A stretch of DNA of 64,000 nucleotides from NCBI GenBank assembly GCA_964016885.1, contig OZ024753.1:18600001-18664000 (forward strand), read 5' to 3'. This DNA is from Eledone cirrhosa (Eukaryota). Of this stretch, positions 2,716-53,080 are shown one piece after another. The first letter of the stretch is position 1. Every line of letters starts with the position of its first letter. The notes beneath the pieces were generated by a model. The model did not search any database and was not told where the DNA came from. It worked only from the letters and a program-made list of their open reading frames with translations. The position numbers were made by a program, and so were the translations under genes.

Positions 2716-3264
2716 AGTAATAGCACTAGTGTAAACATTAACGCTGCGTACCACAACCCGCATAACCATAACCCTATAGCTAACCTCCAAACCTCTACAC
2801 AGCATAGTAACCGGCAGACTAGCACCCAGAGTAATTGTAACTGTAGATCAAGTAGAACCTGCCCTTTAGATAACAAATGCTTAACCAAGGATATCATATA
2901 CTCATGTACAGTCACAACTAACAGCTCTTCTGAAACCTACATAGGCTCCACTTCTAACTGCTTCAAAACTGGATACAATTCGCACCTCCACTCTTTCAAA
3001 AAACACAGTCTAGCCAACTCCACTTCACTATCTAGCTACATACACTATCTAAAAACTAAAAATAAAATATATAAACTTAAATGGGAAGTGGTAGGTAGTG
3101 CAACATCGTACAAACCACCTGATAAATTTTGTAACCTCTGTCTACTAGAGACACATACTATCATCTTCTCTAAACATAATCTCCTTAATAAAAAATCAGA
3201 AGTGTTCGCAAATTGCCAACCCCGCTTCCGACACTCGTTCCAAAACTTTAAACCCTATATATAA
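2716..3264 (+). pseudogene. PLE-1 C-terminal linker + GIY-YIG endonuclease (open frame with no ATG, missed by the ORF track)
   Basis: Reads SNSTSVNIN...CNCRSSRTCPLDNKC...IIYSC...TYIGSTSN...CNLC; ends TAA 3262-3264. Confidence 0.88.
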
Positions 3265-4764
3265 TAATGTCAGACTGGAACCGGCACCAGCCCTAGCAAT
3301 TAACGTCAGTAGCACACCTTACACCTCACATCCACACCCATCTCTATACTCTAAAGATAATACTGACAGCATTTGAGTGCCACCTACCCTGGGAATACCC
3401 ACTTGTACCTCTAATACTGATATCCCGACCGTGGACTACTTATTCTGCATTGCACAAATATAAGATTAGTATAAATTAGGGACACGGTACTCGTTGTGAT
3501 AGCATAGTCCTGTGCATGGATTACCACCAAGAGATAGATTGATGATTAGATAGATAATCGTATTGTTAAGTGAGTATATACTGTAAGCGATCAGTTCATT
3601 GAATTATGCACGTAATCATCTTGATGTGGACTCCTTTAGTACCTATTAATAGACACCACTCTAGCTTGGAGATGTGATACATAATTGATTTATATTTGAG
3701 ACGGGGGTTGTCTATTACCTGATGGCCAGACTAGTGCGTTTATATGAGAGATCGGATCTCCGGACCATACTGAAGATTTACTGGAGATGCAGGCAAGCAA
3801 TGACCCGGAGCCTACCGGGTGGCATATATAATAGTGGGACCATACCAGGTCCTACTGTTGTATTACATTTGCATGGAGCAGTGACTTGAGAGTCCGACTC
3901 CTCTTATAGAACGTTCAGATATGACACCCCTTAATTATTGGTTGGCAATCATCCTAGTATATACACCCTTGTACTTCTTAATGAACAACTCTCTAACTTA
4001 TAAATGGGTACCATACTCTAGATATTAGTTATAACTTCACATGATAGGCACGTATTTGAATCACCATTAATGTAGTTTAGCATAGTAATGAAACTAAAAT
4101 AACTAGCTAGTTACCTCCCCTTACGCATTAATTCCCCTTAATCATTCAGGCACTTCCGGAATTTGGACAGCATGATATATTAATTAAGAACCGACTGGAT
4201 ACCGTTTATAGCTTGACTATATGATGAACCACTGCGAATTATACGATAGACGCGTGTTCTCTATATATATATTGCGTCTCATGGATTATGTGAGTGGTGG
4301 TGTGAGCAAGGACAGTGGTACGACCTTGCCTACGATACAATAAGGTTTATAGTATGTTGAAGGTTTTTGATATTTTGGTGTTTCCCCGCATCCGAGACTG
4401 TATATCATACAGATATATGAGAATAAATGACTTAATAATTCAGCCTATATTATAAGATCGATTGCCTGCTTCAACTGCCTGTCCCTGCAAATATCATTCT
4501 GACGCACTCTAATCATGTATAGATAAGACAAGCGTGCATGCTACACGGGAGATTGCTTCATGCACTGACTACTCTAAGCTTTCCTCTTATTTTATCTTCA
4601 TAGACTGCCAACGCTTCATGTTTATCTTTATTTTCACTCTTGCTTTTATTTTATTTTATTTTATTTTATTTTTATCATGTAACACTTTATATGTAAATTG
4701 CCATGCTACATATATATACATATATATACATGTACATATATATACATGTATATATATATATAGT

Positions 4765-4905
4765 TATGTAATAAACAACATGAGGCAATTATTTCATTTA
4801 CCAGTGATTTCTTAGAAGCAAACAAGTTTTGCTTTCAATCATCAGTAATGAAAAAATCCTGGTGTATTGATTGACATTGGATTTTAAAAACAAAAATATA
4901 ATCTA
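4765..4905 (-). mobile_element. Family B short element end with hammerhead motif; inverted homolog of 7990-8131
   Basis: Minus strand: tttcatta-CTGATGA-ttgaaagcaaaacttgtttgcttctaa-GAAA-tcactgg-TA-aatgaaa. Confidence 0.7.
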
Positions 4906-5508
4906 TATGAAAGTGAGGCTGGAAAAGGAAGAAGGAAAGGAAAAATAAACATACATGCACACAAACACACACACACACACAATTACATACACACACATAT
5001 ATACATACACATATATATACACAAACACATACATACACACTCACACATATGTATATATATATATACATACACATACATATACACATACATACATACACAC
5101 ATATATATATCAACATATCCATACATACACATACACACAAATACACAAACACGCACACACATGCATATATATACATACATACACACAATCATACATATAA
5201 ACACACGTACATACACACACATACATACACACATATATACACGCATACATACGCATGCACAGATATAGATATATGTACACACAAAATAATTATAAGAAAA
5301 ATATAATAATAAAAATACCGTCACATAAGAATAAGAATGAATAAAAATTATTATAGTGTTGACAGCGATACAGGCAAAAAATAAATGAACAAACACACGT
5401 GGTAAGCAATACACACAACAGCACATACACATACATACGTAAAAATAAATACATACACACACGCACATACATATATATATACATATACACATACATACAC
5501 ATACACAT

Positions 5509-5555
<47 letters not shown>

Positions 5556-5675
5556 CGTATCCACAAACACATACATACAAATACATATACACACATATGT
5601 ATGTGTGTAAAACTCATTCTTAGATGTATTCATATGAACCTTGTTTAACTCTTAAATATATATATATATATATAA

Positions 5676-6120
5676 TACGATATTAACAAATGAAAACTAC
5701 ATCTACAAAGCCACATTCATTTCACCATACATACTTCAAGGACACCAAGTCAAATCATGGTGCGCCTTCATCAGATAAAACATAATACAGATCAGTCCTA
5801 CAAACAACATTGACACACCCCTAAAGAATGCAACCATTACTGTTGGAAGCTCCAGCAGCTTCCAACAGTAATGGTTGCACTCTTCAAGGGCACGTCAATA
5901 CTATTTATAAAACTAATCTACATTATACTTCATCTGATGAAAGCACACCACAATTCAACTTGGCGTCCCTGAAACATGTACAATGAAATAAATATGGTTT
6001 TACAAATACAGCCTCCATTTGTTAATATCGCATTTTTACTCGAAATATTTGTTGAGTGCTCCATATCAGTTATAAAAATATTTGCTTGTTGTATCCCAAC
6101 AATTTAAATAGCACTTTACA
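5676..6120 (-). mobile_element. Family C fold-back element (175-bp arms 5676-5850 / 5858-6032, 7-nt loop, extra tail 6033-6120) with mutated hammerhead
   Basis: Arms align with no gaps. Homologous to 8193-8478. Confidence 0.85.
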
Positions 6121-6213
6121 TATATATATATATATATATACATACATATATATATATACATACACATATATATACATACACATACACACACATATATATA
6201 TATACACACATAC

Positions 6214-6245
<32 letters not shown>

Positions 6246-6379
6246 GTATATAAGAAAATACATAAATATTATATATATATAAAAATAAAAAGTTGGGAAT
6301 ACGACAAATAATAAATAAATATTTCGTTTCTGAATTTGTTTAGCAAGATTCTTTATCTGAAATCGTGTGTTGAAACCGA

Positions 6380-6671
6380 TATTGTTATACTGTGGGAGGG
6401 TCATGTTGCCAAAACAAAATGGCGTAGGACAGAACAAAGGAGAGGCACAAAAACAAAGAAAATAATCGCCAGTCACTGAAGAGGTCACAGAATGTGTGAC
6501 GAAAGAACTTTGACAATATATAAACAACTATCTGGTTGTGGAACCAACCAACCAACCAACCAGAAATTTATAAATTCCTAAATTTATAAATTTATTATAA
6601 GAAATTGAAGTGAAATCATCTGGTGCGTGTGTTTCTTATTGGCAACATGACCCTCCCAATGTATAACAATA
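6380..6671 (+). mobile_element. Short element bounded by ~32-bp inverted ends, with a hammerhead-like motif at 6472-6514
   Basis: Ends tattgttatac..tgggagggtcatgttgccaa / ttggcaacatgaccctccca..gtataacaata. Inside: gtca-CTGAAGA-g-gtcaca-gaatg-tgtgac-GAAA-gaac-TT-tgac. Confidence 0.65.
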
Positions 6672-6837
6672 AATAAATAAATAAATAATTAGAAAAAGGT
6701 ATAAATGTGTATAGCTGATTTAGAGCACTCAACAAGTTCCTGTGGCAAATGATCAATGAAAATAAGCATTAAATCACTGTATATAATTATGCATATACAT
6801 ACACACATACATATACATATATATATATATATATATA

Positions 6838-7249
6838 TAATATTAGATCAAAAGATGGTTAAAGGAGTTCCATATATTTTATTATGCGCATTTCAAAAAC
6901 AAACATCATCAAACAATAATATTTGTGTTTTCATCAGATAAAACAGGAGAACATGATATGAAGGCTAAAAAACACTTGTTGATAGTGCAGTTTTAAATCA
7001 ACATATCAACTGCACTATCAACACGTGTTTTTTAGCCTTCATATCATGTTCTCCTGTTTTATCTGATGAAAACACAAATATTATTGTTTGATGATGTTTG
7101 TTTTTGAAATGCGCATAATAAAATATATGGAACTCCTTTAACCATCTTTTGATCTTATATTATGTATACTCCAGTCCTACAAACTGTAGAGTGCTTCTTA
7201 TCCGATATCTGCATTGCTTTATTGTACTACAATAAAACTCACCTCCTAC

Positions 7250-7250
<1 letters not shown>
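6838..7250. mobile_element. Family A fold-back made only of PLE 3' end sequence; hammerhead on both arms (+ copy 7057-7123)
   Basis: Near-perfect inverted arms ~6843-6992 / ~7008-7158, matching the 3' ends of 26337-29308 and 39543-42892. Motif ttttat-CTGATGA-stemII-GAA-ATGCGCAT-A-ataaaa. Confidence 0.88.
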
Positions 7251-7288
<38 letters not shown>

Positions 7289-7474
7289 ACCATACAAATA
7301 CACACACACATACATACACATACATACATATACGTATATATATACACATATAGGAAAAAGTATGACCCCACGGCAGAGCTCAAGCCGTTTCTGAGGCTAT
7401 TATATATATACACACAAAAAACAAATATATAAAAATACACGCACACAAATAAACACACGCACACACACACACAC

Positions 7475-7524
<50 letters not shown>

Positions 7525-8039
7525 AATACAACAAAAGCATATAAAATACAATTATATACACACATACATATACATACATATATATAAACATACATACACA
7601 CATACATATACATACATATATATATATATACATATATACGCATATGCGCAACACGCACACGCACACACACACACACACACACAGAAATAAATATCTAAAA
7701 ATAAAAAAGGTGGGTATGTGAAAGGTAAGGTAGAATGTAGGGGGGGGGGGGAATAAGGAAAATAAATGACATAGGAAAATGTTTAAATATAAGGGGAGAT
7801 AAGGGAGAAAAAGATTATAAGAGTACAGTAAGTGAATTCAGGATGTAAAAAAACCGTAGTGGATGTAAGGCGTAGAGAGCAGAGAAGAAGTTCAAGGTGA
7901 TTGAGTTATCGTAGGAATGTCAATCCAGTTACAGATCAGATGTGATTTCAGGTGAGGACAACATCTGAAGATCTCGGTACTTTTATAAAGATTATACTTT
8001 TGTTTTTAAAATCCAATGTCAATAAATACACCAGGATTT

Positions 8040-8100
8040 TTTCATTCTGATGATTGAAAGCAAAACTTGTTTGCGTTTAAGAAACCATTGGTAAATGAAA
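8040..8100 (+). ncRNA. Minimal type I hammerhead ribozyme (family B)
   Basis: Stem I tttcatt/aatgaaa; CTGATGA 8047-8053; stem II; GAAA 8081-8084; stem III ACCA-T-TGGT; GUA triplet. Confidence 0.8.
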
Positions 8101-8137
8101 TAGTTGCCTTATGTTGTTTATTACATAACTATATATA

Positions 8138-8192
<55 letters not shown>

Positions 8193-8195
<3 letters not shown>

Positions 8196-8478
8196 AAAGT
8201 TCTATTTAAAATTGTTGGGATACAACAAGTAAATATTTTTATAACTGATATAAAGCACTCAACAAGTATTTGGAGTAGATATACGATATCAATAAATGGA
8301 TGACTTCCAAAAACAATGGTTGCATTTTAATAGGGTACGTCTAAGCTTATTTGTAAAACTGTTATATATTGTATTTTGTCTGATGAAGGCATACCATAAT
8401 TTAATTTGGTATCCCTGAAATATGTATAATGAAATAAATATAGTTTTATAAATATAGTTTCCATTTATTAATATCGTA
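8193..8478 (+). mobile_element. Family C element: inverted tail (8193-8300) + sense body with hammerhead 8372-8436
   Basis: tattttgt-CTGATGA-aggcatacca...tggtatccct-GAA-ATATGTAT-A-atgaaata. 8193-8280 is the inverted homolog of 6033-6120. Confidence 0.78.
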
Positions 8479-8499
8479 TATATATATATATTTATATAC

Positions 8500-9650
8500 A
8501 CATATGTAAGTATGTATGTATACGTACATACATATATGTATACAGATGTACAGTAGCATGCATATATATATATATACATATATATACATACAGCTACACA
8601 TACATATATGTACGTATCAGTTTAGCAGATGCTTATTATAGCGCCCGCTTTGTTCGTTTGTAAACAAACTGAACAGCCTGAATTTATGCCGTACGGTGTT
8701 AAGGCAACCACGTTACCTTTTTGTTCAACACTGACACAGGAACGATGTACTAGTTTCAAGCTTGTTAGCTATCATCAGCACCGTATACCCTTCTGCCAGA
8801 TGGTTGAACGTTCGAAAGTATATACTTTCCTTATGAAAATTAACGGCTGAGCAGCCTAATTTGCATATCGAGTGAGTTAAATCGGTCAGGCGTACCGAAA
8901 ACGATAAGTTGTAATAAAATGAAAACGAAATTTCATTTCTCACTCTTAGTACGGCACTTACTTAAATGTAAGTATGTATGTATACGTACATACATATATG
9001 TATACAGATGTACAGTAGCATGCATATATATATATATACATATATATACATACAGCTACACATACATATGTGTACGTATCAGTTTAGCAGATGCTTATTA
9101 TAGCGCCCGCTTTGTTCGTTTGTAAACAAACTGAACAGCCTGAATTTATGCCGTACGGTGTTAAGGCAACCACGTCACCTTTTTGTTCAACACTGACACA
9201 GGAACGATGTACTAGTTTCAAGCTTGTTAGCTATCATCAGCACCGTATACCCTTCTGCCAGATGGTTGAACGTTCGAAAGTATATACTTTCCTTATGAAA
9301 ATTAACGGCTGAGCAGCCTAATTTGCATATCGAGTGAGTTAAATCGGTCAGGCGTACCGAAAACGATAAGTTGTAATAAAATGAAAACGAAATTACATTT
9401 CTCACTCTTAGTACGGCACTTACTTAAATGTAAGTATGTATGTATACGTACATACATATATGTATACAGATGTACAGTAGCATGCATATATATATATATA
9501 CATATATATACATACAGCTACACATACATATATGTACGTATCAGTTTAGCAGATGCTTATTATAGCGCCCGCTTTGTTCGTTTGTAAACAAACTGAACAG
9601 CCGTACTAAGAGTGAGAAATGAAATTTCGTTTTCATTTTATTACAACTTA
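8500..9650 (-). repeat. 462-bp tandem repeat (~2.4 units), one hammerhead per unit (8742-8784, 9204-9246), plus an inverted fragment 9601-9650; non-LTR retrozyme-like
   Basis: Period 462 seen directly (8629 vs 9091). Minus strand acggtg-CTGATGA-tagctaacaagctt-GAA-ACTAGT-A-catcgt. 9601-9650 is the reverse complement of ~8906-8954. Confidence 0.82.
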
Positions 9651-10587: not shown

Positions 10588-11840
10588 GGAGGTGAGTTTT
10601 ATTGTAGTTCTCTATCTAAAATCTGCAATTTCTGCCTAAATGAAAAATTTACCATTATCTCTAATCTAGATTCTATAATAAATAGACGCACTGACTTGTT
10701 TTCTATCTGCTTGCATAAATTCCATAAAACATCTCACAAAGTATACAGCTAATATTCAATTCTTTATCAATTTAGAATCTTTTTCTCAAAGGCACATATA
10801 TATATATGCACTTCTTTTAAAAATATACCCATCTTTCTACCTTATTTCAAAGGTTATTATACATTCTATAATACTTGTTTACTCATTACTCTTACTCTAT
10901 ATCACCTTGTAAAATCCTTCGTAAACATATACATTTTTTTTTTGACGCTAGATTATTCATCCTCAATTCATTATCTTTTCTCCCTATCATCTAACTCATT
11001 ATTCTCAATACATATTAACATTTTCTTTTGCTTTTTCTTTTTCTTCGCACATATTATCAAATCCTTCAATATACAAACCTTAACTTTACATTATTTTTCT
11101 CTTCGTTAATTTTCAAATTTCTATAATACCTGTTTGACTCTTTCTACATCACCCATATTTATCACTTCCTTTTCTTCTCTTCTAATATCTAACCCCTAAT
11201 CTGTACCTTTTCTCACTCTTGCCTAACTTAGAATCAATTATTACATAATACAACACATTCTTACTCTATATCACCTTATAAAAATCCTTCGTAAACATAT
11301 ACATTTTTTTTGACGTTAGAATATTCATCCGCAATTCATTATACTTTTCTCCCTATCATCTAACTCATTATTCTCAATACATATTAACTCCTTCTCTTTC
11401 TTCGCACATATTTTTTTCTCTTCGTTAATCTTCAAATTCTTTTAATTCATACATTATCTTCCAACGGTTTTCAACCTCTCTATGTAAAACAATATGTCTT
11501 TCTCAGTTATAAAAACTATCTCTCTCTCTCTATCACCCATCTCTCCTCCTATCTCATCCTTCCTCACTATACTCCTCCCTCTCCACCTCCACTCTCATCT
11601 CCTCCTCTTTTTTTCACCCCCCCCTTCTAAATAAAATATTTTTCCCAATATCACACATCAATCTAAAACTACTTCTCATATGTTGATTTAAAACTACACT
11701 ATCCACTAGTGTTTTTTAGCCTTCATATCATGTCCTCCTGTTTTATCTGATGAAAACACAAATATTATTGCATGATGATATTTGTTTTTGTAATGCGCAT
11801 AATAAAATACATGGAACTCCTTTAACCATCTTTTGTTCTT
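10584..11840 (+). mobile_element. Family A PLE, heavily 5'-truncated: ~24-bp inverted tail + GIY-YIG C-terminus + 3' UTR
   Basis: SLSKICNFCLNEKFTIISN...CLHKFHKTSHKVYS matches the C-terminus of 27735-28931. The hammerhead near 11741-11808 has GAAA changed to GTAA. Confidence 0.85.
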
Positions 11841-11845
11841 ATATA

Positions 11846-12994: not shown

Positions 12995-15900
12995 GTATCC
13001 CCCTTCCAGTGAGAAAGCTAAGATTGAACGAGCTACCTGTGTTGTTGAAGAAAATCAGTAAAAACAAAAAACACATGAAAGTCATTTACAAACAGGAGAA
13101 ATGAAAGAAAACATGCAAAGCAAAAGAAATTAACATGCAGGAAAATATACTGTGATGTTACATAAAATGGAAAATGTTCGTACGAAAAGTTTGTTGATTA
13201 AAGGTTCGTTCATTTCATAGAAACGGAAAAATGTTCTTTTGTCTGTTCTTTTGATGTGGGTGATGCACAGAGTTAATTGATTTGTGTGTAGCAATATTTC
13301 ATGACCACAGAAATTGGCCGATTCGTAGAAATGTACAAATTAGCCGAAATGTCGACCAGATGCATAATTTGTACTTACCCGATAAACTTGTACGTATCAC
13401 GTGGGCCATCGTACTGTTCTTCCGGATTTGGTGTGTCGCGGTTGTGCAGAATTTGTCGTGTTTGTGTCGGACAAAGTTGTTGGTGAGTCTGCTGGAGAAA
13501 CGGTGGGTACTGGTGGCAATTCCTGTTCTATGAACGCTTTTTTTAAACGATCAATGGAGACGGTATTTCGTTTCCCGTTCAAGCCGAGGACGAAATACTT
13601 AGGGCGTTTCTGTATCATCTTATAGGGCCCGGAATACGGCGGACGAAGTTGCGATGGAATACCGTCATTTCTAACGAAAACATGCGTCAATGTATCGATG
13701 TCTTTTGGTATGTGTGAAGTAACGTGCTGTTGTTTAGGGGCTGAAGGAGACAGATGCGACATCGATGACCGTAAACGGTGCCCATATTTTGTTGGGTCTG
13801 GAAGTTCTTGTGGCGAAACAGGAGCGATCATTTGTCCGGGTAGAGTGAGTACGGTGCCATACATCATTTCAGCCGGAGAATGTCCGACTCCCTCCTTAAC
13901 AGTGGAACGAATACCAAGAAGAATGAGTGGGAGGTATTCAAACCAGTTAGTGGAGTCTTCGTAGGCCTTGATAGATGATTTTAACTGGCGGTGTAAGCGT
14001 TCTACCATGCCGTTAGCGGCAGGGTGATACGCTGTTGTACGGATGTGTTTGCACCCGAGGAGACGTGTCAGCTCGGTAAAGAGGTGCGAATCGAACTGAC
14101 ATCCTCTATCCGTAGTGATGCTCGCTGGTGTGCCGAAACGCGAAACCCAGTGAAAGACTTGCGTTGTGGCGACAGTTTCCGCAGTAATATCCGTCAGAGG
14201 ATAAGCTTCTGGCCATCGAGAAAATCAGTCGACACAGGTGAGAAGATGAGTGTAGTTGTGAGAAGGAGGGAAAGGTCCAACAATGTCTATATGCACATGT
14301 TGGAACCGTGCATCAGGTGTTGCGAAAGAACCGATCGGGGCTTTGATATGCCGGTGAATTTTAGCCTTCTGGCACGCGATACAGTTCCTAGCCCATTCGC
14401 GGGTATCCTTGTTGATGTTGGGCCACACAAAGCGGGCAACCATAAGTTTCTGCGTGGCGCAGACGCCAAGATGTGCCAGAGAATGCAGTGCCGAGAAAAC
14501 GTCGCGTCGATGTTTCCGTGGCACGTATGGGCGCTCGTGGCCTGTGGAGATGTCGCACCAAATATAACCCGAATAAGAGGGCAGCGGGCATTCTTTCAAT
14601 TTCAAGGATGATTTCCGGAGTTGCAGCAGTTCCTCGTCATTCTATTGATCCGCTGCATTCCTCTGGAGGTCGATAGTGGCAGTGGTGTGGATTACGTTAA
14701 GCTCCATGCGCGATAGGGCATCAGCTGCTGTGTTGGTGGCACCCTTAATGTACCGAATATCAGTAGTGTTCTGAGAAATGAAGTCCAGATGTTGGACCTC
14801 CCTGGGTGAGTATCGGTCAGGCTTGGCATTGAACGCGTACACTAGTGGTTTGTGGTCGGTGTATATAGAAAACACACGACCTTCTAGCATGTGCCGAAAA
14901 TGCTTGACAGCAAGGTATGCTGCCAATAATTCACGACTGAATGTGCTGTTCTTAGTTTCGGCGGGATTTAATCGCTTAGAGAAAAAATATACAGGTCGCC
15001 AAATATCGCCAGAGAGTTGTTGAAGCACACCTCCAACTCCGAAATCGGATGCATCAGTCAATAAACACATTGGGGCGTCAGGTTTGGGGTAACTCATCAT
15101 TGTAGCCTCGGACAACATTTTCTTCAACTCAGCGAAAGCTGTACATTCTTTTTCGCTGAGCTTGATGTTTGCGTTTTTGGTTGTACGCTGCCACGGCAAA
15201 TCTGTGAGTGGCTGGGCTGTCTCTGCACAGTAGAGTAAATCTTCTGTAGAAGTTTACCAGGCCAAGAAATTCTCGCAGTTTGCGGAGAGATGTAGGTTGT
15301 AGAAAATCAATGATGGATTTGACTTTCTCCTTAAGTGGGCGAATACCATCTTTGTCAATGATGTGTCCCAGAAAATGAAGGGACGCAACTCCGAACTCAC
15401 ATTTGCTGGGGTTGATAACAATTCCGTATTCACGCAAACGTGTGAATAGGAGATCCAGGTGTTTCTCATTATCTTCATCGGAGCTGCTGGCCACCAGTAA
15501 GTCATCAATGTATGCGTATACAAAAGGTAGACCTCTGGTGACTCTATCGATGAATCGCTGGAATATCTGCGCTGCATTTCGCAAACCGAAAGGCATACGC
15601 AGAAATTCGAACATTCCAAAGGGTGTTGTGACTGCGGTCTTTGGAATATCTGCGGGCTCTACGGGTATCTGATTGTAAGCTCGCTCAAGATCGATCTTCG
15701 AAAATATGCGAGCCCCGTGCAGCGAGCTAGAGAAGTCCTGTAGATGAAGCACTGGATAAGAATCAGGAACGGTGCAGTTGTTCAGTGCACGGTAGTCGCC
15801 ACAGATTCGCCAGTCGTTCGACGACTTCTTGAGTACACAGTGTATGGGTGAGGACCAGTTGCTGCTGGACAGACGTATGATGCTGAGATCCAGCATGTGC

Positions 15901-17408
15901 TGAAATTCTTGTTTGACGGACTTCAGCCGGTCTGGTGGTAGCTTTCTAGGTCGTGCAGCGACAGGTGGGCCGTGTGTTTTTATGTGGTGTGTGACGTCAT
16001 GTTTTACAGGGCAAACGTTGAATAGTGGTCGAGCTACGTCTGGGTATTTGTTGATGATGTGGTTGTGCCGGGTTGTTGTTGTCGATCGTGAAATGACTGG
16101 ACTGACTGTGGGTGTCATAGCGACTATCCCGCGCACAGCGAGACCAGTGGAGTTGTCAACGAGACGTTGGTTTTTCAGATTCACTAGAAGCGAGAAGTGC
16201 TGAAAAAAATCAGCTCCTAAAATAGGGGTCGGCAGCTCAGCCACAACGAATACCCACTGGAAAGTGCGGCGTAGACCCAAATTTAGTGTCAGGGACTGTT
16301 CTCCGTAGGTCGGAATATGTGAGTGATTCACCGCCTGGAGCCAGACTGGTGTCTCTCTCTTTTTCCAGGAACGCAGGAAACCGGGATGATGCTCACTTCA
16401 GCACCGGTGTCAACCAGGAAACGCATGCCTGTGACGCGATCCTGAATGAAAAATAGGCGACTTTGGTTATGAGGGCCAGAAACGTTCGTCGCATTCAGTT
16501 TCTAGCTGTGTCGTTTCCCTGATTCGTTTTCGAAACAAATGAACAGGGATGGTTGCACTTTTGCGCTCGTCTCCCGAATGTTTGGTGGTACCAACACATT
16601 TCTGGTGAATCCCGAGATGCGCTCGGACTTCTTGAGCGACCACCAAATCGGCGAGTTCGACTGTTGGACCGACGCGTGGCCGGGTTGCCCAGTGACAAGG
16701 CCTGAATTTGTTGCGTCAAGGCCTGTATCTGTGTTGCTTGCTGTGCGAGTAACTGGTGTAGATCGGGCATCTCTGTGGCACTGGAGGGCTGAAGGAAAGG
16801 ATTGGTTGAAGGCACGGCTGGCGTCACATTCGCTATTTTTGAGTGCGGATGTGGTACCTCCATGATCTTATCTGCCAGCTCGGCGTGTTGTTCTATGATG
16901 GTGGACTCCCTGGTGGATGCTAGTACAACTTGTGTGGCAGAAGGTAAACGCTGGAGGAAGAGTTGCTTGAAAATTTCATCCAGGAGTTCTCCCAAGAGCT
17001 GCTTCATTCGCCGTAGGAGTTGTGTCGGGTTTTTATCTCCTAATTCCTCCGATATGAGGAGCTGGTGCAAGCGCTTCTGCTGCGACTCCGACGTCCGCTT
17101 AACTAATGTTCTTTTAAATGTGTCAAATGTGTCACCACAGAGCCGGGTGGTGCTAAAATGAGGTCTCGAACCTCATTCATAATCTCCGGAGACATCGATA
17201 CGATGAGATGTGTGAGACGGGATGCCTCGCTAACGATCCGGTTCAATGCGAACTGCGCTTCGATGTGCGCGAACCACAGTGTTGGATCGTGCACCCAGAA
17301 TGGTGGAATCCTTAATGTCGCCCTGACTGCCATTTCTGCCGTAGATGAATCGTCGTGTGCTAGAGACATCGTTTGTTGTGGATGATCAGAAGGTTGTGTG
17401 TCTGTTTT

Positions 17409-21220: not shown

Positions 21221-22335
21221 AATAGGATATGTGTTCCTACACGCACAAAACGCCAAGGGACACATCTCTTGTCCAAACATATGCCAATGTGGTTCAATGG
21301 CAGGTTAATAAATTAACGAGCCAGAACATATATAATCAGGTTTAGCAAATAATGAAAAAGTTTCAAAATAAATTTTAAAAAATTGACTTTACTTACTATA
21401 GTTAATTTTACCGAATCGGTTTCGAATGGTTGGACAATACATGTGTCCCTTAGCGCTTTGTGCGTGTAGGAACACATATCCTATTATTACTAAACTCCTC
21501 TATGTTGAGAAAAAAATTTGGTCGTTCCGACTGCTGCTAGTGATAGTGGTGACCGTTTGACCTACCTCCCTCTGCTTCTATCTTTACTTCGGCCCTTGAA
21601 AAAATTGATTCCACTTCATTTAGTCTTATCTCGGGAACAGTTTTGCATAGCGCTAGTTCGTAATTTAAATTCAAGAATTTTATATTCTTCGAATGAAAAG
21701 AACATTCTGACGAGAATCTTTCTTTGCAACGAAGGCCGTATGGTCTCCGTTTATTTTTGAGATTCGAAACAGATTCGGTAAAGGTAACTATAGTAAGTAA
21801 AGTCAATTTTTTAAAATTTATTTTGAAACTTTTTCATTATTTGCTAAACCTCATTATATATCTTCTGGCTCGTTAATTTATTATCTGCCATTGAACCACA
21901 TTGGCATATCGTTGGACAATACATGTGTCCCTTAGCGCTTTGTGCGTGTAGGAACACATATCCTATTATTACTAAACTCCTCTATGTTGAGAAAAAAATT
22001 TGGTCGTTCCGACTGCTGCTAGTGATAGAGGTGGCCGTTTGACCTACCTCCCTCTGCCTCTATCTTTACTTCGGCCCATTGAAAAAATTGATTCCACTTC
22101 ATTTACTCTCATCTCGGGAACAGTTTCGGATAGCGCTAGTTCGTAATTTAAATTCAAGAATTTTATATTCTTCGAATGAAAAGAACCTTCTGACGAGAAT
22201 CTTTCTTTGCAACGAAGGCCGTAAGGTCTCAGTTTATTTTTGAGATTCGAAACCGATTCGGTAAAGGTAACTATAGTAAGTAACGTCAATTTTTTAAAAT
22301 TTATTTTGAAACTTTTTCATTATTTGCTAAACCTG

Positions 22336-22338
<3 letters not shown>
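21221..22338 (+). repeat. 482-bp tandem repeat (~1.9 units), one hammerhead per unit (21702-21785, 22185-22268), preceded by an inverted fragment 21221-21427
   Basis: tggacaatac at 21431 and 21913. Motif acctt-CTGACGA-gaatct...agattc-GAA-ACCGA-T-TCGGT-A-aaggt. Confidence 0.82.
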
Positions 22339-26336
<3,998 letters not shown>

Positions 26337-29308
26337 TGTAGGAGGTGAGTTTTATTGTAGTACAATAAAGCAATGCAGATATCGGATAAGAAGCACTCTA
26401 CAGTTTGTGGGACTGGAGTATGCATAATATAAGATCAAAAGATGGTTAAAGGAGTTCAATATATTTTATTATGCGCATTTCAAAAACAAACATCATCAAA
26501 CAATAATATTTGTGTTTTCATCAGATAAAACAGGAGAACATGATATGAAGGCTAAGAAAACACTTGTTGATAGTGCAGTTTTAAATCAACATATGAAAAG
26601 TGGTTTTAGATTGATGTGTGATATTGGGAAAAATATTTTATTTAGAGAGGGGGGGGGAAGGATGAAAAGGGAAGGAGATGAGAGGGAGAGATGGGTGATA
26701 GAGAGAAAGAGATAGTTTTTATAACAGAGAGGAGATATATTTTATATAGAGGGGTTGAAAACCGTTGGAAGATACTGTATAAATTAAAAATTTTAAAAAT
26801 TAACGAAGGGAGGATATGTGCGAGGAAAAAATATATTATATTTAGGGAGGGGTGGGGGTGTAAAGGATGAAAAAAAGGGAGGAGATGAGAGTGAAGGTGG
26901 AAAGGGAGAGATGGGTGATAGAGAGAAAGAGATAGTTTTTATAACTGAGAAAAAGATATAATGTTTTAATATAGAGAGGTTGGGAACCGTTGGAAGATAA
27001 TGTATAAATTAAAGGAATTTGAAAATTAACGAAGGGAAATTATGTATGAAGATAGAGAGAAAAAAATAATAATTGTGGGTGAATATTCTAACGTCAAAAG
27101 AAGAAATGTATGTATTGTGGGAATTTCAAAATTAACAAAGAGAAAAAAAGTTTATGTGTAGAAGGATTTGAGAAAAATAATGTGAAGTTAAAGTTTGTAT
27201 ATTGAATTCATATGTATTAATAATGAGTTCGTTGATGGGGAGAAAAAAATAATAATAAATTAAGGATGAAATTGAGATTAAAAAGATTTATGATAGAGAG
27301 AAAAAATAATAATGATTGCGGATGAATACTCAAAATGTCAAAAACAAATGTTATTGTTTTACGAGAAGATAGAATGAGGGTAATGAGTAAACGAGTATTG
27401 TAGAGTGTATAATGCCCTTTAAAGTAAGGTAGATGGGTATATTTTAAAGAATATATGAGTATATATTAAAAAAAAATATAATAATAAATTAAGGATGAAA
27501 TTGAGATTAAAAAGATTTATGATAGAGAGAAAAAATAATAATGATTGCGGATGAATATTCAAGATGTCAAAAACAAATGTTATTGTTTTACGAGAAGATA
27601 GAATGAGGGTAATGAGTAAACGAGTATTATAGAGTGTATAATGCCCTTTAAAGTAAGGTAGATGGGTATATTTTAAAGAGGTGTATGTATATGTGCCTTT
27701 GAGAAAAGATTCTAAATTGATAAAGAATTGAATATTAACTGTATACTTTGTGAAAAGTTCTATGGAATTTATGCAGGCAGATAGAAAACAAATCTGAACG
27801 TCTATTTATTATGGATTCTAGGTTAGAGATAATGGTAAATTTTTCATTTAGGCAGAGATTACAGATTTTAGATAGAGAGCTGTTCAAGTATGAGGATGCA
27901 GAAGAAATCTTTTTCCAAAGGATGTTATATTTAATGTTTTTGTCTTTTAAGGACCATATGAGTTCTGAGAGAGCAGTGTTAGTTCTTTTAAGTTTGTATT
28001 TGAAAGATGAATGATGATTATAGAGACGAGCTTTAAAAGAGGTGGAAGTGGAGCCAAAATAGGTGAAGGAATTGGTGCTAGTTATAATTTTACATTCATA
28101 AATGAAGTTTTTATCGAGGCAATGGTTGTTGAGAGGACATTTATTTTTAATGCGGCAGTTGCAATTAGAGAGATTATTAATGAGTGATCTAGTGTTATCT
28201 ATAGAAGGAATTGGATTGGAGAAGTTGTTTGCGATAGGAATAATAGGAATAATAGTTTCTTGATTTAGAGTTGGATTATGAACATTTAGCGAAGTTGTGT
28301 TTGACGTTGCATTTGGGTTTACAGAAGTTAGCCTAGGGTTTACAATGACGTCAGGAGTACTATTATTGTTATTATGAGATTCAATATTGGAAGGAAGAGA
28401 TTTAGTATTTAATATTTTGTTGTTGTGTTTAGAAATGATGTTGGAAATATTGGAGGATGTAGAATACGAAAATTTGATGGTGTGTTTGTTAAATATTTTA
28501 CTATAGATATGTGAGGGAGGGAAGCATTTATTTAAGGCACTAAAAAATAATTTAGGAATATTGTTATTAATAGAGATGGAGAAAGGAGCATTATACCAGA
28601 TTATGTTTTTGTATCTAGGTCTTTTATTAAAATTATTGGAATGGTTATGATTAAATATTCTACTGTAAGTTTTCCTAGAATTTGTTTCTTTATTATATTT
28701 GATTTTATCTGGATAGCCGGCTTTAGAAAGTGCGTTATTATAGTAATTGGCGTTAGCATCAAAGATGTTTTTATTAGAAGATATGTTAGATATTCTATTT
28801 CCAATATTATTAACTATAGCATTCTTGATATTGGTAGGATGGTTAGATTTAAAGTTAACATAATTAAGATTCTCATTGTTTTTATGGTAAGGGTAATATA
28901 GGCCAGTGTCAAGATTAAGAGATACATCCAAGAAATTAGCTAGTTTGATACTATTATCAAATTCAATTTTTAGGTTATGTTGGTTTCTCCCCCCCCCTCT
29001 CTAAATAAAATATTTTTCCCAATATCACACATCAATCTAAAACCACTTTTCATATGTTGATTTAAAACTGCACTATCAACAAGTGTTTTTTAGCCTTCAT
29101 ATCATGTTCTCCTGTTTTATCTGATGAAAACACAAATATTATTGTTTGATGATGTTTGTTTTTGAAATGCGTATAATAAAATATATGGAACTCCTTTAAC
29201 CATCTTTTGATCTTATATTATGCATACTCCAGTCCCACAAACTGTAGAGTGCTTCTTATCCGATATCTGCATTGCTTTATTGTACTACAATAAAACTCAC
29301 CTCCTACA
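26337..29308 (-). mobile_element. Family A PLE, 5'-truncated (thumb + GIY-YIG ORF 27735-28931), with ~320-bp inverted terminal repeats
   Basis: Motifs FLDVSL, SNHP, WYNAPFS, CNC..KCPLNNHC, FIY..YFGST, CNLC. 28986-29308 is the reverse complement of 26339-26660. Hammerheads in both repeats. Confidence 0.92.
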
Positions 29309-34853: not shown

Positions 34854-37270
34854 TGACAATATCCACAATATTGCAGTGGAGAAAACTCTACTCTCTGATC
34901 ATGACATGGTTCTCTGTGATCTGAGATTCCACCGTCCAATATACAAACCCAATGTCATCTCTCCTGTCCATCCGTTTGACGCTACGGATTTCCACAATGC
35001 AAACTGGGAAGCGATCAGTCATGATCTTGTACATGTCGACTGGTCCTTCACGCACACTCATACACCCACTAACATCAAAAAGTCCTGGCAGACATTTGTG
35101 GACACTGTTACAAACATATGTGCTAAACACACCCCATTAAGAACTATAAACAAATCTAAGAGCAGAATCCCTAGAAATAGAAAAACGCTCATCAGAAAAA
35201 TTAAGAGAACGAACAAAAAAATCAACAAGCTGAAATACTGTCAGCAGCAACACATCAACTTGACTGCCATTTCATCACTAGAGATTAAAAAACATAACCT
35301 CCAAAACAACATAATGTCCCTCATCAACAATCAGAGAAGAGCTGAAGAGGCCTGGGCCATTGAGAAGATCAAACTCAATCCCAAAGTGTTCTTTTCATTT
35401 GCAAAAAAACACAAAATCACTGGCTCTACTGTTGGCCCTCTAATTGATGAAAATGGCACTCTTCAAGACAATGCTAAAACCTTGGGTGAGATACTGCAGA
35501 AACAATACTGCTCTGTTTTCAGCAATCCTGATATGGCCGATCTGGGCTGTATCGGCGATGTTACTCCCCATTACATCTTATCGGACATAACGTTTGGCGC
35601 CCCTGATGTCCTGGCGGCAATAAAGGAAATCAAGCATAATTCAGCAGTAGGTCCCGATAGGTTCCCTGCTTGTGTCTTGAAGGCGTGTCAACACCAACTT
35701 GCATCTCCTCTTGCCAATCTGTGGCGGAACTCACTGGATGCTGGATATGTGCCAGAAAACCTCCTATCCCAGTCTGTTGTCCCAGTTTTCAAAAAGGGAA
35801 ACAAATCCCTTGCCGTGAATTACCGTCCAATCTCACTCACCTCTCATATCATTAAAGGTATTTGAGCGAGTGGTGAGATCGCGAATGACCCACTTCCTTG
35901 AGAGTAACAAATGCTGAACTCCAACCAGCATGGATTCCGTAATGGAAGGGATTGCCTGACGCAGCTACAGCATCACTTTGATGACATTTTGAGAGCCTTG
36001 GGAGAGGGTTCCAACACTGATGTTATCTACCTTGATTTCAGCAAGGCCTTTGACAGGGTTGATCATAACATTCTACTGAGAAAGCTGTCCAATATTGGTG
36101 TCACTGGAAAGCTGCTGCAGTGGATCAAGAGCTTCCTGTCAAACAGAACCCAACATGTTGTAGTTGAGGGAGTCAAATCAAGCCCAGCCAAAGTCAGTAG
36201 TGGGGTCCCACAAGGCACTGTGTTGGGCCCACTTCTCTTCATCATCTATATTAATGACATCACTGACATCATCAAACACAGCAACATTAAAATTTTCGCT
36301 GATGATTCCAAGCTCCAAAAGGTCATCAATGGCGTGGATGACCGGATAAGCCTTCAGTCAGACCTACTGGCTGTTACCCAATGGGCAGAAAAGAACAACA
36401 TGTTACTGAACGAAGACAAATTTGAACTGATCCACTTTGGAAAAGAGGATGCTCTGAAACTTCCGTACTCCCTTCCCTCCGGGGAAACTCTCGTGGCATC
36501 TAACAACATCAGAGACTTGGGAGTAACCGTGGACAGCAATATAAGCTGGACCACGCATATAAGCAGCAAAGTTGACATGGCCCGCAGAATGTGATCCTGG
36601 ATCCTCAGAACCTTCCAGTCGAGAGATTCCCGCACCATTATCCTTCTCTTCTCTACTTTCGCCCGACCACACCTTGAATACTGTTGTCCACTGTGGTCTC
36701 CCCACACGAAACAAAGTATCATGAAACTTGAAGCTCCTCAAAGGGCAATCACGAAAAAGATAGATGGCATGTCAGACCTTGACTACTGGGGTCGATTAGA
36801 AAACCTGAAACTTTACTCACTCCAACGTCGCCGTGAGCGTTATATTATCTGCATGATGTGGAAAATGTTCCATCATCACTGCCCAAATGATGTTGGCATC
36901 GCCTTCAAGATACACCCAAGGCTTGGGCCCCGTGCTATCCGTCCCATTCAAAAATCTAAATCGCAACTCATAACAACAATACGGCACAATTATTTCACCT
37001 CAATCGGCCCTGCTCTCTTCAACATCACACCAGGACACGTCAAAACAGAAACTGACCACACAAAATTCAAGAAGTCTTTGGACAAATTCCTCCAAGTAAT
37101 CCCGGACAAACCACCCACACCCGGATATGTCTCCGCAAACAGTAATTCTCTTCTCGAATGGGCCATGGTGCCCAAATCCTGAATTGAAAGACTTCGCCAG
37201 GTGGTGCTATTAAGTTAGACATGGCCTGGGCCAATACTGGCCAAAACATTTCAAAGTTATTCAAAGTTAT
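34854..37270 (+). mobile_element. CR1-group LINE, 5'-truncated ORF2 (end of APE endonuclease + RT), with frameshifts and a stop
   Basis: Motifs [59 protein letters not shown]. 3' tail (TTCAAAGTTA)x2. Confidence 0.93.
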
Positions 37271-37285
37271 ATATTTATATATATG

Positions 37286-37351
<66 letters not shown>

Positions 37352-37603
37352 TGTATATATATAGTCGAAAATGTTACACTAGACATTAATGTATTTTCCA
37401 TCATCAGCTGTGATAAATTGAATATTTTACAAATCAATAATTTGACAACGGTGTTCTAGAGGTATTGTATCGAACGGAATGTTTACATCGGCTTTTTAAT
37501 ATTGTACAAGGATTGGAAACTAGTATTTATATATTGAATACGGCGAATGTACAGCAAAGAGAAATACCTACAAAGTGGAGCACCTTCGTTTTCATTATTA
37601 GTT

Positions 37604-39542: not shown

Positions 39543-42500
39543 GTAGGAGGTGAGTTTTATTGTAGTACAATAAAGCAATGCAGATATCGGATAAGAAGCA
39601 CTCTACAGTTTGTGGGACTGGAGTATAAATAATATATAAGATCAAAAGATGGCTAAAAGAGTTCTCAAAAGAGAAACTCGTACAGATCACCTTGTAAATC
39701 TCAAGAACACGATTTCAAACCTAAATTCCTCAAAAAATGTTTTAGTCCACTCTGACAAAACAAATAATTTATATGGTATTTCTAAGGATAACTATAACAA
39801 TCTAATCCTAAAGGAACTTAGCAAAAAATATCGCAAAACCAACCATGATAATTTAGAATCCATAAACTTTGAAGCTTCTGAGATTATGTCAAAACTTGGC
39901 ATCTGAAAAAAGACCGAACCATTCCTCTCAAGAACTCCGAGGATAAATATCAAGGTTCACAAAAATAACTTTAGTACTGGACTACCTTTTAGACTAATCA
40001 CCCCCTCTAAATCAAATCTGGGGGTTGTTAGCAAAGCCATCTTGGATATAATTATCCCACAGGTTCGTTCTAATTGTTCTTCTTTGAACTTAAATTTATG
40101 GTTTGGTACTTCTGAAGTGATTGGCTGGTTCAACAAATTTAATAAGAAAAACAAACAAAAATTTATTCAATTTGATATTGCCAGCTACTATTCTTCTATT
40201 TCGTCCTCATTTCTCAACAATGCTCTATCTTTCGCTTACAAATATTCAGACATCACCACAGATGAACTTCACATCATTCTCACCGCACGTAAAACCATCC
40301 TAGAGTTCAACAATGAATATTGGACCAGAGCTGATACCTCTAACAACTTTGACATCACAATGGGAGCATCCGATTCATCCCAATTGACAGATTTAATTGG
40401 TATCTTTATTTTGCACTCTTTGATTCGGAAAATTCCTCAAATTAGCGGTGGAATTTATCGTGACGATGGACTCTTTACTATTTTAAATTGCAACATAGTT
40501 AACCTTAATATTATTAAGAACAATATACGTAATCTCTTTAACCAACATAACTTAAAAATTGAATTTGATAACAGCATCAAACTAACTAATTTCTTGGATG
40601 TATCTCTTAATCTTGACACTAGCCTATATTACCTTTACCATAAAAACAATGAGAACCTAAATTATGTTAATTTTAAATCTAACGACCCCACTAATATTAA
40701 GAATGCTATAGATAGTAATATTGGAAAAAGAATATCCAACCTATCATCTAATAAAAACATATTTGATGCTAACGCCAATTACTATAATAACGCGCTTTCT
40801 AAAGCCGGTTATCCAGATAAAATAAAATATAGTAAAGAAACAAATTCTAGAAGAACTTAAAGTAGAATAATTAATCACATCATTCCAATAACTTTAATAA
40901 AAGACCTAGATACAAAAACATAATCTGGTATAATGCTCCTTTCTCCATCTCTATTAATAATAACATTCCTAAATTATTCTTTAGTGCCTTAAATAAATGC
41001 TTCCCTCCCTCACATATCTATAATACAATATTTAACAAACACACTATAACATTTTCATATTCGACATCCTCCAACATCTCCAGCATTTTCTCTAAACACA
41101 ACAATAAAATACTAAATACTAAATCTCTTCCTTCCAACACTGAATATCATAATAATAGTAATAGTACTCCCGACGTCATTGTTAACTCTAGGCTAATTTC
41201 TGCAAACCCGAATACAACGTCTAACGCAACTTCGTTAAATGTTCTTAATCCCATTCTAAATCAAGAAACTATTATTCCTATCGTAAATGACTTCTCCAAT
41301 CCAATTCCTTCTATAGATAACACTAGGTCACTTGTTAATAACTCTATTAATTTCTCTAATCACAATTGTAATTGCCCTGTTAAAAATAAATGTCCTCTCA
41401 ACAACCATTGTCTTGAAAAAAACTTAATCTACGAATGTAAAGTTATAACTGACACCAATTCCTTTACCTATTTTGGCTCCACTTCCACCTCCTTTAAAGC
41501 TCGTCTTTATAATCATCATTCGTCTTTTAAATACCAACTTAAAAGAACCAACACGGCACTCTCAGAACTCATATGGTCCTTGAAATTCAAAAAAATATTA
41601 ACTATGGGGGAAGGTTTGTTCTGCTTATCCATACTTGAATGGTTCTCTATCCAAGACATGTAATCTCTGTTTATGTAAGAAATTTACCATTATATCTAAT
41701 TTAGATTCTATATAAATAGATGCACTGACTTGTTTTCTCTCTGCTTGCATAAATTCCACAGAACATTCCATAAAGTATACAGCTAATATCTAATACTTTA
41801 CCAATTTAAAATCCTTTTCTCAAAAGCACATATATATATATAGATATATATTTCTTTAAAAATATACCCATCTTTCTACCTTATTTCAATGTTATTTATT
41901 ATACAATATATAATTATATTTACTCATTCTATATCACTCCTATTTATCACTTCCCTTTCTTTCTTTTTTTCATTTTTTTCTTTTTTTTTCTTTTTTTTTC
42001 TTTTTCTTTTAATTTCTAACCACTAATCTGTACCTTTTCTTCCTAGATACTTCTCAATTCTCATTATTACTCACCACAATATATCCTTACCCTTTTAAAT
42101 ACTTTATAAATTCACCTTGAAAAATCCTTCGTAAACATAAACATTTTTTGACGTTAAATTATTCATCCTCAATTCATTATTTTTTTCTCCCTTTCATGCT
42201 CATCTAACTTATACATATTACACTTATTCATCCACTCTTCTACTTCTTTTCACAATATATCCTTAATTACATTACTATTGTTATATTTTTATATTTTTTT
42301 AAATAATACATATCAAATATTTCTTTCCATCGCACATATTATTAAACTCTTAAATATTATTCTTAATACATATTAACAATTTCTTTTCATCGCACATATT
42401 ACTAAACCCTTCAATATACAAACCTTAATTTAACAATATTCTAAAAACATTTTTTTTCTCTTTGTTAATTTTAAAATACTTTTAATTTATATGTTATCTT

Positions 42501-42885
42501 CCAAGGGTTTTTTAACCTCTCTATGTAAAAAAATATATTTTTCTGTTATAAAAGCTATCTCTCTCTCTCTATCACCCATCTCTCCCCCTATAACATCCTT
42601 CCTTATTATACTCCTCCCCCTCCATTTTTTTTACTCTCATCTCTTCCTCTTTTTCCTTATCCCCCCCCCCCCGCCCCTCAATTTTTTTTACCAATATCAC
42701 ACATCAATCTAAAACTACTTTTCATATGTTGATTTAAAACTGCACTATTCACAAGTGTTTTTTAACTTTCATATCATGTCTCCCTATTTTATCTGACGAA
42801 AACACAAATGTCGTCGCATGATGATATTTGTTTTTGAAATGCGCATAATAAAATACATGGAACTCTTTTAACCATCTTTTGATCT

Positions 42886-42892
<7 letters not shown>
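39543..42892 (+). mobile_element. Family A PLE, 5'-truncated and decayed (RT, thumb, GIY-YIG 39665-41785), inverted tail 39543-39664, hammerhead 42786-42853
   Basis: Motifs HSDKTNN, QFDIASYY, MGASDSSQLTDLIG, YRDD, FLD. In-frame stops at 39904 and 40858. Homologous to 26337-29308. Confidence 0.93.
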
Positions 42893-44121: not shown

Positions 44122-44709
44122 CATATACACATATATATATATATATACATATACACATATACATATATATATATATACATATATATATATACATATACAT
44201 ATATATATATACACTATACATATATACATATACATATATATATACACATATACATATATACATATACATATACATATATACATATATACATATAATATAC
44301 ATATATATATATATACATATATATTACATATATATATATACATATATATACATATATATATATACATATATATACATATATATAATATACATATATATAC
44401 ACATATATATACATATATATACATACATATATATACAACATAAATATATACATATATATATACATATATATATACATATATATATACATATATATTATAC
44501 ATATATATATACATATATATATACATATATATATACATATATATATACACGTATATATATACATATATATATACATATATATATACACATATATATATAC
44601 ATATATATATACATATATATATATATACATATATATATACATATATATTATACATATATATATATACATATATACATATATATATATACATATATACATA
44701 TATATATAT

Positions 44710-49413: not shown

Positions 49414-53080
<3,667 letters not shown>

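Follow-up and report, generated by a model that had tools for sequence, protein, structure and literature searches.

How can the two arms of one inverted repeat come to differ in almost a single kind of mismatch, and in one direction? The question is raised by a hairpin in a 64,000-nucleotide stretch of the Eledone cirrhosa genome (GenBank assembly GCA_964016885.1, contig OZ024753.1, positions 18,600,001 to 18,664,000 of the forward strand), which is called the window below and whose positions are used throughout. The hairpin belongs to a family of fold-back insertions of Penelope-like elements (PLEs). On the basis of sequence comparison, we consider it highly probable that ADAR-edited RNA was reverse transcribed into germline DNA, and that the hairpin is a PLE fold-back end carrying 40 A-to-G changes on one strand.

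Mismatch pattern and signature of the changes

The arms of the hairpin (5676-5850 and 5858-6032; Table 1) pair without a gap over 175 positions, with 132 Watson-Crick pairs, 42 A·C pairs, 1 G·T pair and no transversion. This recount agrees with an earlier sequence-only reading of the window, which had reported 175-bp arms with no indel and 43 differences, 42 of them A·C. The C is in the left arm at 22 of these pairs and in the right arm at 20. The predicted RNA fold of the minus strand is a continuous duplex (−245.6 kcal/mol, z −32.6), compared with −139.5 kcal/mol for the plus strand. The unit exceeds the interval 5676..6032 given by that reading, because a tail reaches 6119.

The majority of 17 other family copies was used as the reference for polarity. 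Relative to this majority, the window copy has 42 T>C changes on the plus strand (21 in the left arm, 19 in the right arm and 2 in the tail); the remaining differences are 2 G>A, 1 A>G, 1 C>G, 1 A>C and a 1-nt deletion common to both arms. Each of the other 17 copies departs from the majority at 2-16 sites, with no more than 5 T>C among them. When the A·C pairs were polarised, 40 of the 42 proved to be A>G on the minus strand, and two (5693 and 5915) to be G>A on the plus strand. The claim that both arms gained A-to-G on the minus strand therefore holds at 40 sites and fails at two.

The changes, called edits below, depend on the neighboring base and on pairing. On the minus strand, A was edited at 24 of 52 sites after U, 13 of 46 after A, 3 of 21 after C and 0 of 13 after G (Fisher p=0.0097), as anticipated by the statement that changed As rarely follow G. 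The arms are edited at 40 of 132 sites and the tail at 2 of 37 (p=0.0011), and the 22 bp adjoining the loop at 0 of 12. The opposite direction, A>G on the plus strand, occurs at 1 of 131 sites in the arms. One-strand polarity, depletion after G and restriction to paired regions had been proposed as a check against a family consensus, and all three were found. None of 51 control fold-backs was edited, and the highest count of any one mismatch class in them was 6; these controls are top DNA matches or first-listed unedited matches and bound the frequency only loosely. Over 8144 pairs they contain 70 G·T, 42 A·C and 64 other mismatches. G depletion upstream of the edited A is an ADAR motif common to Metazoa, octopus included, and the strongest hyper-editing was found in octopus, cephalopod RNA being heavily edited (PMC5625713, accessible text). 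ADAR is the likely enzyme, judging from the signature.

A family of Penelope-like fold-backs

A family search by DNA similarity gave 2397 candidates, 40 of which were scored, and an unedited 30-mer matches 6380 arms in the assembly (3.0 Gb searched, about 30 large contigs). The copies have a common layout of (TA)n, arm, variable junction, arm, a tail of about 85 nt and (TA)n. The two arms within one copy are near identical and have private variants in common. Since the junctions vary and the private variants are common to both arms, the fold-backs were formed at PLE insertion. They arise normally in this way, and perfect fold-backs of the pseudo-long terminal repeat (pLTR) into (TA)n number thousands per genome. 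Family copies include inverted 5'-truncated pLTRs with the tail at one end only. At one locus only (L053), an open reading frame (ORF) remnant lies between inverted family arms; it is 42% identical to window ORF 59860-62349. Among the Atlas look-alikes of that ORF, 13-77% of members have GIY-YIG and RVT_1. Searched by sequence against Pfam and PDB, the PLE ORFs gave no match. An unedited arm (L015) is predicted to form a hammerhead with the core CUGAUGA/GAAA and folded stems I and II. Rfam gave nothing at gathering level in the window, and for L015 only generic hairpin matches below threshold, with no hammerhead model.

Described insertions of endonuclease-positive (EN+) Penelope-like elements (PMC8557442, PMC11167929, PMC6155905) are alike, in their accessible text, in the inverted truncated pLTR, the one-end tail, the minimal hammerhead and the TA target, as well as in an ORF with reverse transcriptase (RT) and C-terminal GIY-YIG and in an internal start of reverse transcription. 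Their tail is 30-40 nt long, compared with about 85 nt here, and those texts mention no editing footprint, whereas the window copy has one. The window unit is thus an ordinary PLE fold-back with a hammerhead and a tail in (TA)n, and its unusual part is the editing. A miniature inverted-repeat transposable element or a fold-back DNA transposon was rejected because junctions and arm lengths vary and the tail is asymmetric. A non-LTR (long terminal repeat) retrozyme, defined by head-to-tail tandem hammerhead units (bioRxiv 10.64898/2026.07.22.740005, accessible text), was also rejected; every copy examined was either an inverted pair or a single arm.

A source and its edited copy

The order of events can be read from a second locus. 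The junction of the edited hairpin L034 is present at three places, and one of them, L191, 15 kb distant, is unedited. L190 and L191 (G000:C3:319.476-319.493 Mb) are a 2.2-kb direct copy and its source, 15 kb apart. The two are free of substitutions in the 5' flank (661 nt) and the tail (93 nt), so that 754 nt outside the hairpin are clean. Within the hairpin, L190 has 30 A>G and no other substitution, with 0 of 23 after G. Differences in the 3' flank are 1 C>T, together with changes in microsatellites and at the segment end. This comparison indicates that the DNA was unedited at first and that the edited copy, which brought its flanks along, came later. On the edited strand, a PLE endonuclease ORF lies upstream of the source, which is itself inside a repeat of the same type as repeat F, the host of the window hairpin. 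The start of the copy follows a (TA)n tract, and its end falls at an AT run internal to the source; the copied piece is an internal segment bounded by AT microhomology, not by the host pLTR end. These segment ends suggest that priming may occur at internal AU runs.

Other edited hairpins and an amplified lineage

The sequence-only reading had advised a search for further inverted repeats with G·U mismatches on one strand only, and pattern searches found seven. Together with the window copy, they make up the eight hairpins of class I, in which the arms are edited differently on one strand (window, L028, L031, L034, L120, L129, L144 and lineage E). Pooled over the eight, A is edited at 169 of 384 sites after U, 122 of 303 after A, 25 of 122 after C and 5 of 86 after G, the last against 316 of 809 for the rest (p=1e-11). 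Five have the window-type orientation relative to the tail and three the opposite one; either strand of a fold-back can therefore be the RNA. As a rough estimate, from 4 true matches against thousands of arms, there would be about one class I event in several hundred fold-backs. In class II (L035, L118/L119 and others), both arms have identical sense-strand A>G. These identical edits (L035, L118/L119) mean that editing preceded the inversion; on their sequences, class II would be an edited template with the inversion made at insertion. Further pattern matches (L029, L036-L041, L130) were judged to be unedited.

The surroundings of the edited hairpins also have a strand. Seven of the eight lie in strand-polarised microsatellite flanks, always G-rich on the edited strand, compared with 5 of the 51 controls (p=2e-5). 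This suggests that the edited RNAs were transcripts of host PLEs. The L028 hairpin, read on its edited strand, likewise lies beyond the 3' end of a GIY-YIG-like ORF.

Among 63 pattern matches, most carry one common edit set, which defines lineage E; 30 were seen as loci and 20 more regions, some overlapping, were examined, the remainder being seen as 35-mers only. In lineage E (L132-L138, e.g. G000:C545:118900-124900), a different PLE, of the family of window ORF 59857-62349, has in its 3' region an edited fold-back that belongs to a sister subfamily. Of seven long loci examined, six have the ORF, and in each of the six the edits appear as A>G on the ORF-sense strand. Compared with the unedited subfamily, the lineage has 34 fixed differences, of which A>G on the host-sense strand makes up 30. 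In an alignment of 24 rows, some of which are two ends of one insertion, A>G accounts for 10 of 13 shared segregating changes and 11 of 24 singletons in the arms, with one T>C singleton. The hammerhead core is edited as well, with GAGG replacing GAAA. The 1402 matches of a sister-subfamily motif represent unedited arms of that subfamily rather than edited copies. The fixed and segregating A>G changes indicate inheritance and repeated rounds of editing, and they cannot have come from polishing. Lineage E has spread as cargo in its host PLE.

Two further inverted repeats of other sequence were observed. A short one at L159:4359-4721 has 24 A·C and no G·T and is probably an edited hairpin of a different sequence. 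In the window, a 2.5-kb LINE-type (long interspersed element) copy at 44618-47121 (minus) is inverted relative to 34854-37363 (plus) and, compared with that nearby copy, has 43 A>G on the sense strand and 13 other changes; its A>G rises toward the 3' end, 1 of 104 As with G as 5' neighbor is changed, and the other copy is unedited. A long inverted repeat with excess A·C (L152) was rejected as a microsatellite alignment effect.

Proposed mechanism

The proposed pathway would begin with PLE insertions into (TA)n, which produce the perfect pLTR fold-backs described above. A minus-strand transcript of the window hairpin, probably running through host repeat F, would then form the 175-bp duplex, in which about 30% of the As would be deaminated. 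An RT, most likely the PLE RT primed at nicked (TA)n on AU-rich RNA, would read inosine as G, and the complementary DNA (cDNA) would enter the chromosome. At the sister loci, copies carry flanking host RNA sequence, and an edited hairpin in a PLE 3' region has multiplied and gained more A>G.

The sequence-only reading had proposed that a hyper-edited hairpin transcript was reverse transcribed and integrated, with editing acting as a heritable change. Both proposals are supported, the former by one-strand polarity, neighbor bias, duplex confinement and the L190/L191 pair, and the latter by that pair and by lineage E. Its suggestion that the fold-back itself is a mobile RNA is not supported in that form. 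Fold-backs form at PLE insertion, and, where traceable, the edited hairpin travelled inside a longer host RNA; judging from these loci, the mobile RNA would usually be the transcript of a host PLE with the hairpin in it, rather than the hairpin alone. The edited strand is the ORF-sense strand at the sister loci (lineage E, L028 and L190/L191); for the window hairpin this would follow from the orientation of F. The minus strand of F, which is the G-rich and the edited strand, is probably its sense strand, as indicated by the motif read by eye and by the F-type host of L191, located 3' of a PLE ORF.

Alternative explanations

Deamination of adenine in DNA, or strand-specific mutagenesis of an extruded hairpin, a cruciform or a cDNA intermediate, would account for the changes with no edited RNA. 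Long AT-rich inverted repeats can extrude, the donor is missing for two of three tested copies, and under a snap-back model the window minus strand would be the new cDNA. However, the edited L190 is the derived 2.2-kb copy, and its source, L191, has the hairpin in unedited form. The edited strand tracks the sense strand of the host ORF, the two tail orientations (5 vs 3) imply no single fixed cDNA strand, cDNA changes made before fold-back would appear in both arms, and the neighbor order fits ADAR on dsRNA (double-stranded RNA). We therefore regard changes at the DNA level as improbable. An assembly artefact, arising from polishing with edited RNA reads or from long-read error in the hairpin, is no more probable. 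The window letters are without independent DNA confirmation, and cephalopod RNA is heavily edited (PMC5625713, accessible text), but all 51 control hairpins of the same assembly are clean, as is a hairpin 800 bp away. Polishing would produce neither the single edit set of lineage E, found at many loci and on both strands with nested gains, nor the identical edits in both arms of L035. Moreover, reads diverging by 12% would not be expected to map here in a family of thousands.

Misincorporation by RT, with dGTP placed opposite U under nucleotide imbalance while the hairpin RNA is copied, would also yield one-strand transitions via an RNA step. It is very improbable, since a G inserted across from a template U would appear as U>C on the RNA strand, but the ORF-sense strand shows A>G, and since such errors would pass the duplex ends, where L190 has no change in 754 nt of flank and tail. 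Ordinary C>T decay, or selection keeping the RNA structure through G·U pairs, has next to no probability. It would explain the two A·C pairs that are G>A on the plus strand; G or C in the family consensus had been raised as the contrary case, but ancestral A-T at the other 40 sites refutes it, barring a large ancestral subfamily with G/C there. Neutral decay in the controls is low and two-sided, and selection would explain neither the absence of edits after G (0/13) nor the 30 one-step changes of L190. DNA editing of a retroelement by APOBEC was rejected because G>A is expected on the sense strand, and A>G is observed on the sense or RNA strand.

Several observations weigh against an edited and reverse-transcribed RNA. 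No unedited donor of the window copy was found in the assembly: its 1-nt deletion motif matches only itself, and junction and flank searches yielded no donor. The assembly search also gave no unedited donor of L028, so that a donor was found for one of three edited copies tested (L034 yes; window and L028 no). Repeat F looks older than the hairpin, its arms having 10 differences in 157 pairs compared with 3 non-editing differences in 175 for the hairpin (p=0.044); its private changes amount to about 3%, with 4-5 in each F arm. The neighboring hairpin at 6840-7160, 800 bp away and younger than F, is unedited. No 3'-neighbor preference is significant at the window hairpin (3'G 3/11, 3'A 12/46); the preferred 3' neighbor at ADAR sites is G in mammals and reptiles and A in invertebrates (PMC5625713, accessible text). 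The search patterns fixed 2-4 T>C sites, slightly inflating the 5'U and 5'A classes of the pooled counts. The edited arm of the window is in no public contig, and runs X1 and X3, possibly from other individuals, have no depth at 5685-5722 and no piece spanning it.

No public run holds half of the window query words (best 0.43). A weak signal is seen in run X4 (kind not on record, contigs only), in which A>G occurs at four arm sites at 2-6%, compared with ≤0.06% in X1; three of these sites coincide with window edits. Runs X12 and X17 contributed no contigs to this comparison.

Route of the window copy

Three routes may have brought the edited hairpin to its place in F. A TA-bounded segment inserted from a donor now absent is our tentative preference; overwriting of an unedited hairpin in place is possible, with somewhat less weight; and arrival with the entire F unit is unlikely. 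The last is disfavored because the F arms diverged without A·C excess and the hairpin at 6840-7160 is clean. Insertion of the hairpin alone is also possible for the window copy. The F flanks of the hairpin have no excess in either direction relative to nine F copies (6 A>G and 6 T>C). Editing of the CA-rich flanking microsatellites along with the hairpin was accordingly rejected; they are intrinsic to F and the same in L191 and L190. The exact junction at 5851..5857 has three one-mismatch matches assembly-wide, each a different insertion.

The TA tract of F (5657-5675 in the window) is an insertion hot spot, with independent insertions of the hairpin family, family C, in other F copies (L044, L048 and L051). 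Long (TA)n arrays in the window (22334-25767, 50915-52895 and others) have interruptions that are almost solely C or solely G on one strand. Direct editing of (UA)n was rejected for these polarised arrays; the spacing of interruptions is not geometric, short gaps are in deficit, and unit slippage fits. PLE 3' regions also have a polarity, being G-rich on the sense strand.

Hammerhead motifs

The hammerhead changes listed by the sequence-only reading are real; on the minus strand, GAAA>GAAG is at 5734 and AUA>AUG at 5726. The second hammerhead is edited as well (AUA>ACA on the plus strand). The further suggestion that editing may block self-cleavage is not supported. Whichever strand is transcribed, the antisense arm comes first, and the fold of the unedited unit (−282 kcal/mol predicted) far outweighs that of the ribozyme (−12 kcal/mol). 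The ribozyme is therefore predicted to be caged whether edited or not.

Comparison with known systems

In Rous-associated virus (RAV) U3 and an avian leukosis virus (ALV) inverted repeat, A-to-G hyperediting has been described (PMC12925331, accessible text). There, too, ADAR-type A>G in inverted-repeat RNA, reaching up to about half of the As, was recorded in DNA after reverse transcription. These are exogenous retroviruses, whereas the present changes are in a host assembly, in a non-viral PLE and in many independent events, one beside its source and one amplified. APOBEC-edited vertebrate LTR retrotransposons (PMC4866542, PMC2873906, accessible text) share clustered, one-direction, strand-biased footprints polarised by subfamily consensus. 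In those LTR elements the change is G>A, via C>U on single-stranded cDNA. The present change is confined to the duplex of an invertebrate PLE and, read on the RNA strand, is A>G with upstream G depleted. Metazoan ADAR hyper-editing is alike in its long near-perfect dsRNA substrate and upstream G depletion; the accessible account describes it in RNA only (PMC5625713), and here it is seen in DNA. The accessible text of PMC12458077 makes no mention of reverse transcription. No published account of fixed ADAR footprints in non-viral endogenous elements was found, most subscription journals and supplements lying outside the search; the only precedents found were the exogenous retroviruses and APOBEC.

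The present reading would imply a path from RNA editing back to inherited DNA, in a lineage known for editing. Such fossils would record germline ADAR activity and its site preference, readable from DNA alone. They may also serve as barcodes of the poorly known PLE mechanism, including the template strand, the RNA extent, host cargo, internal AT-tract priming and the one-molecule origin of the arms, and bursts of one-strand A>G could distort the dating of transposable elements. A broader proposal, which we think doubtful, is that ADAR acts here as a recurring germline mutagen: PLE RTs would copy AU-bounded edited segments into (TA)n, both as new insertions and by overwriting, driving the subfamily evolution of active retroelements over successive rounds and eroding dsRNA-forming inverted repeats of the genome itself, with the window copy as a case of in-place, RNA-templated overwriting.

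Features of the window

Table 1. Hairpin unit, host repeat F and the adjoining sister copy in the window.
Position	Strand	Feature	Evidence
4707..7978	-	Host repeat F, older; PLE-type 3' region rich in microsatellites; minus-strand hammerhead-like motif near 4790-4850; unedited	Comparison with F copies
5657..5675	.	Left (TA)n tract, insertion target in F	Sequence; F copies L047 and L052 cross the tract without insert
5676..5850	-	pLTR arm without tail, sense on minus; 3' arm of the putative edited RNA; 21 A>G on minus	Arm pairing, family comparison
5717..5783	-	Minimal type-I hammerhead motif; CUGAUGA at 5774-5768; GAAA>GAAG 5734; cleavage triplet AUA>AUG 5726	Unedited copy folds stem I, core and stem II
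5851..5857	.	Fold-back junction/loop; exact form unique in assembly	Exact matches: 1 (self)
5858..6032	+	pLTR arm with tail, sense on plus; 5' arm of the putative edited minus RNA; 19 T>C on plus	Arm pairing, family comparison
about 5925-5991	+	Second hammerhead, in tail-bearing arm; AUA>ACA at 5981	Motif comparison
6033..6119	+	PLE tail extension, at one end only; edited at 2/37 T (6061-6062)	Family comparison
6120..6139	.	Right (TA)n tract	Sequence
7979..8185	+	F arm in inverted orientation; aligned with 4755-4915 over 157 pairs, of which 10 are mismatched, without excess of A·C	Arm alignment
8190..8480 (includes 8303-8478)	+	Sister-subfamily copy (tail and arm), unedited; outgroup of the sequence-only reading, not the donor	Sequence comparison

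A second hammerhead-type pLTR family is also present in the window (6840-7160, 11678-11844, 26427-26597, 29049-29218 and 42721-42890), where it flanks PLE ORFs 27735-29000 and 39907-41663. The region 13397-17172 (minus) contains fragmented frames that we take, from their motifs, to be gag/pol/integrase-like frames of an LTR retrotransposon. Near-identical young direct repeats of 807 bp (1-807 and 2931-3737) lie around an inverted pair of PLE ORFs, and tandem 462-bp units occupy 8504-9602.
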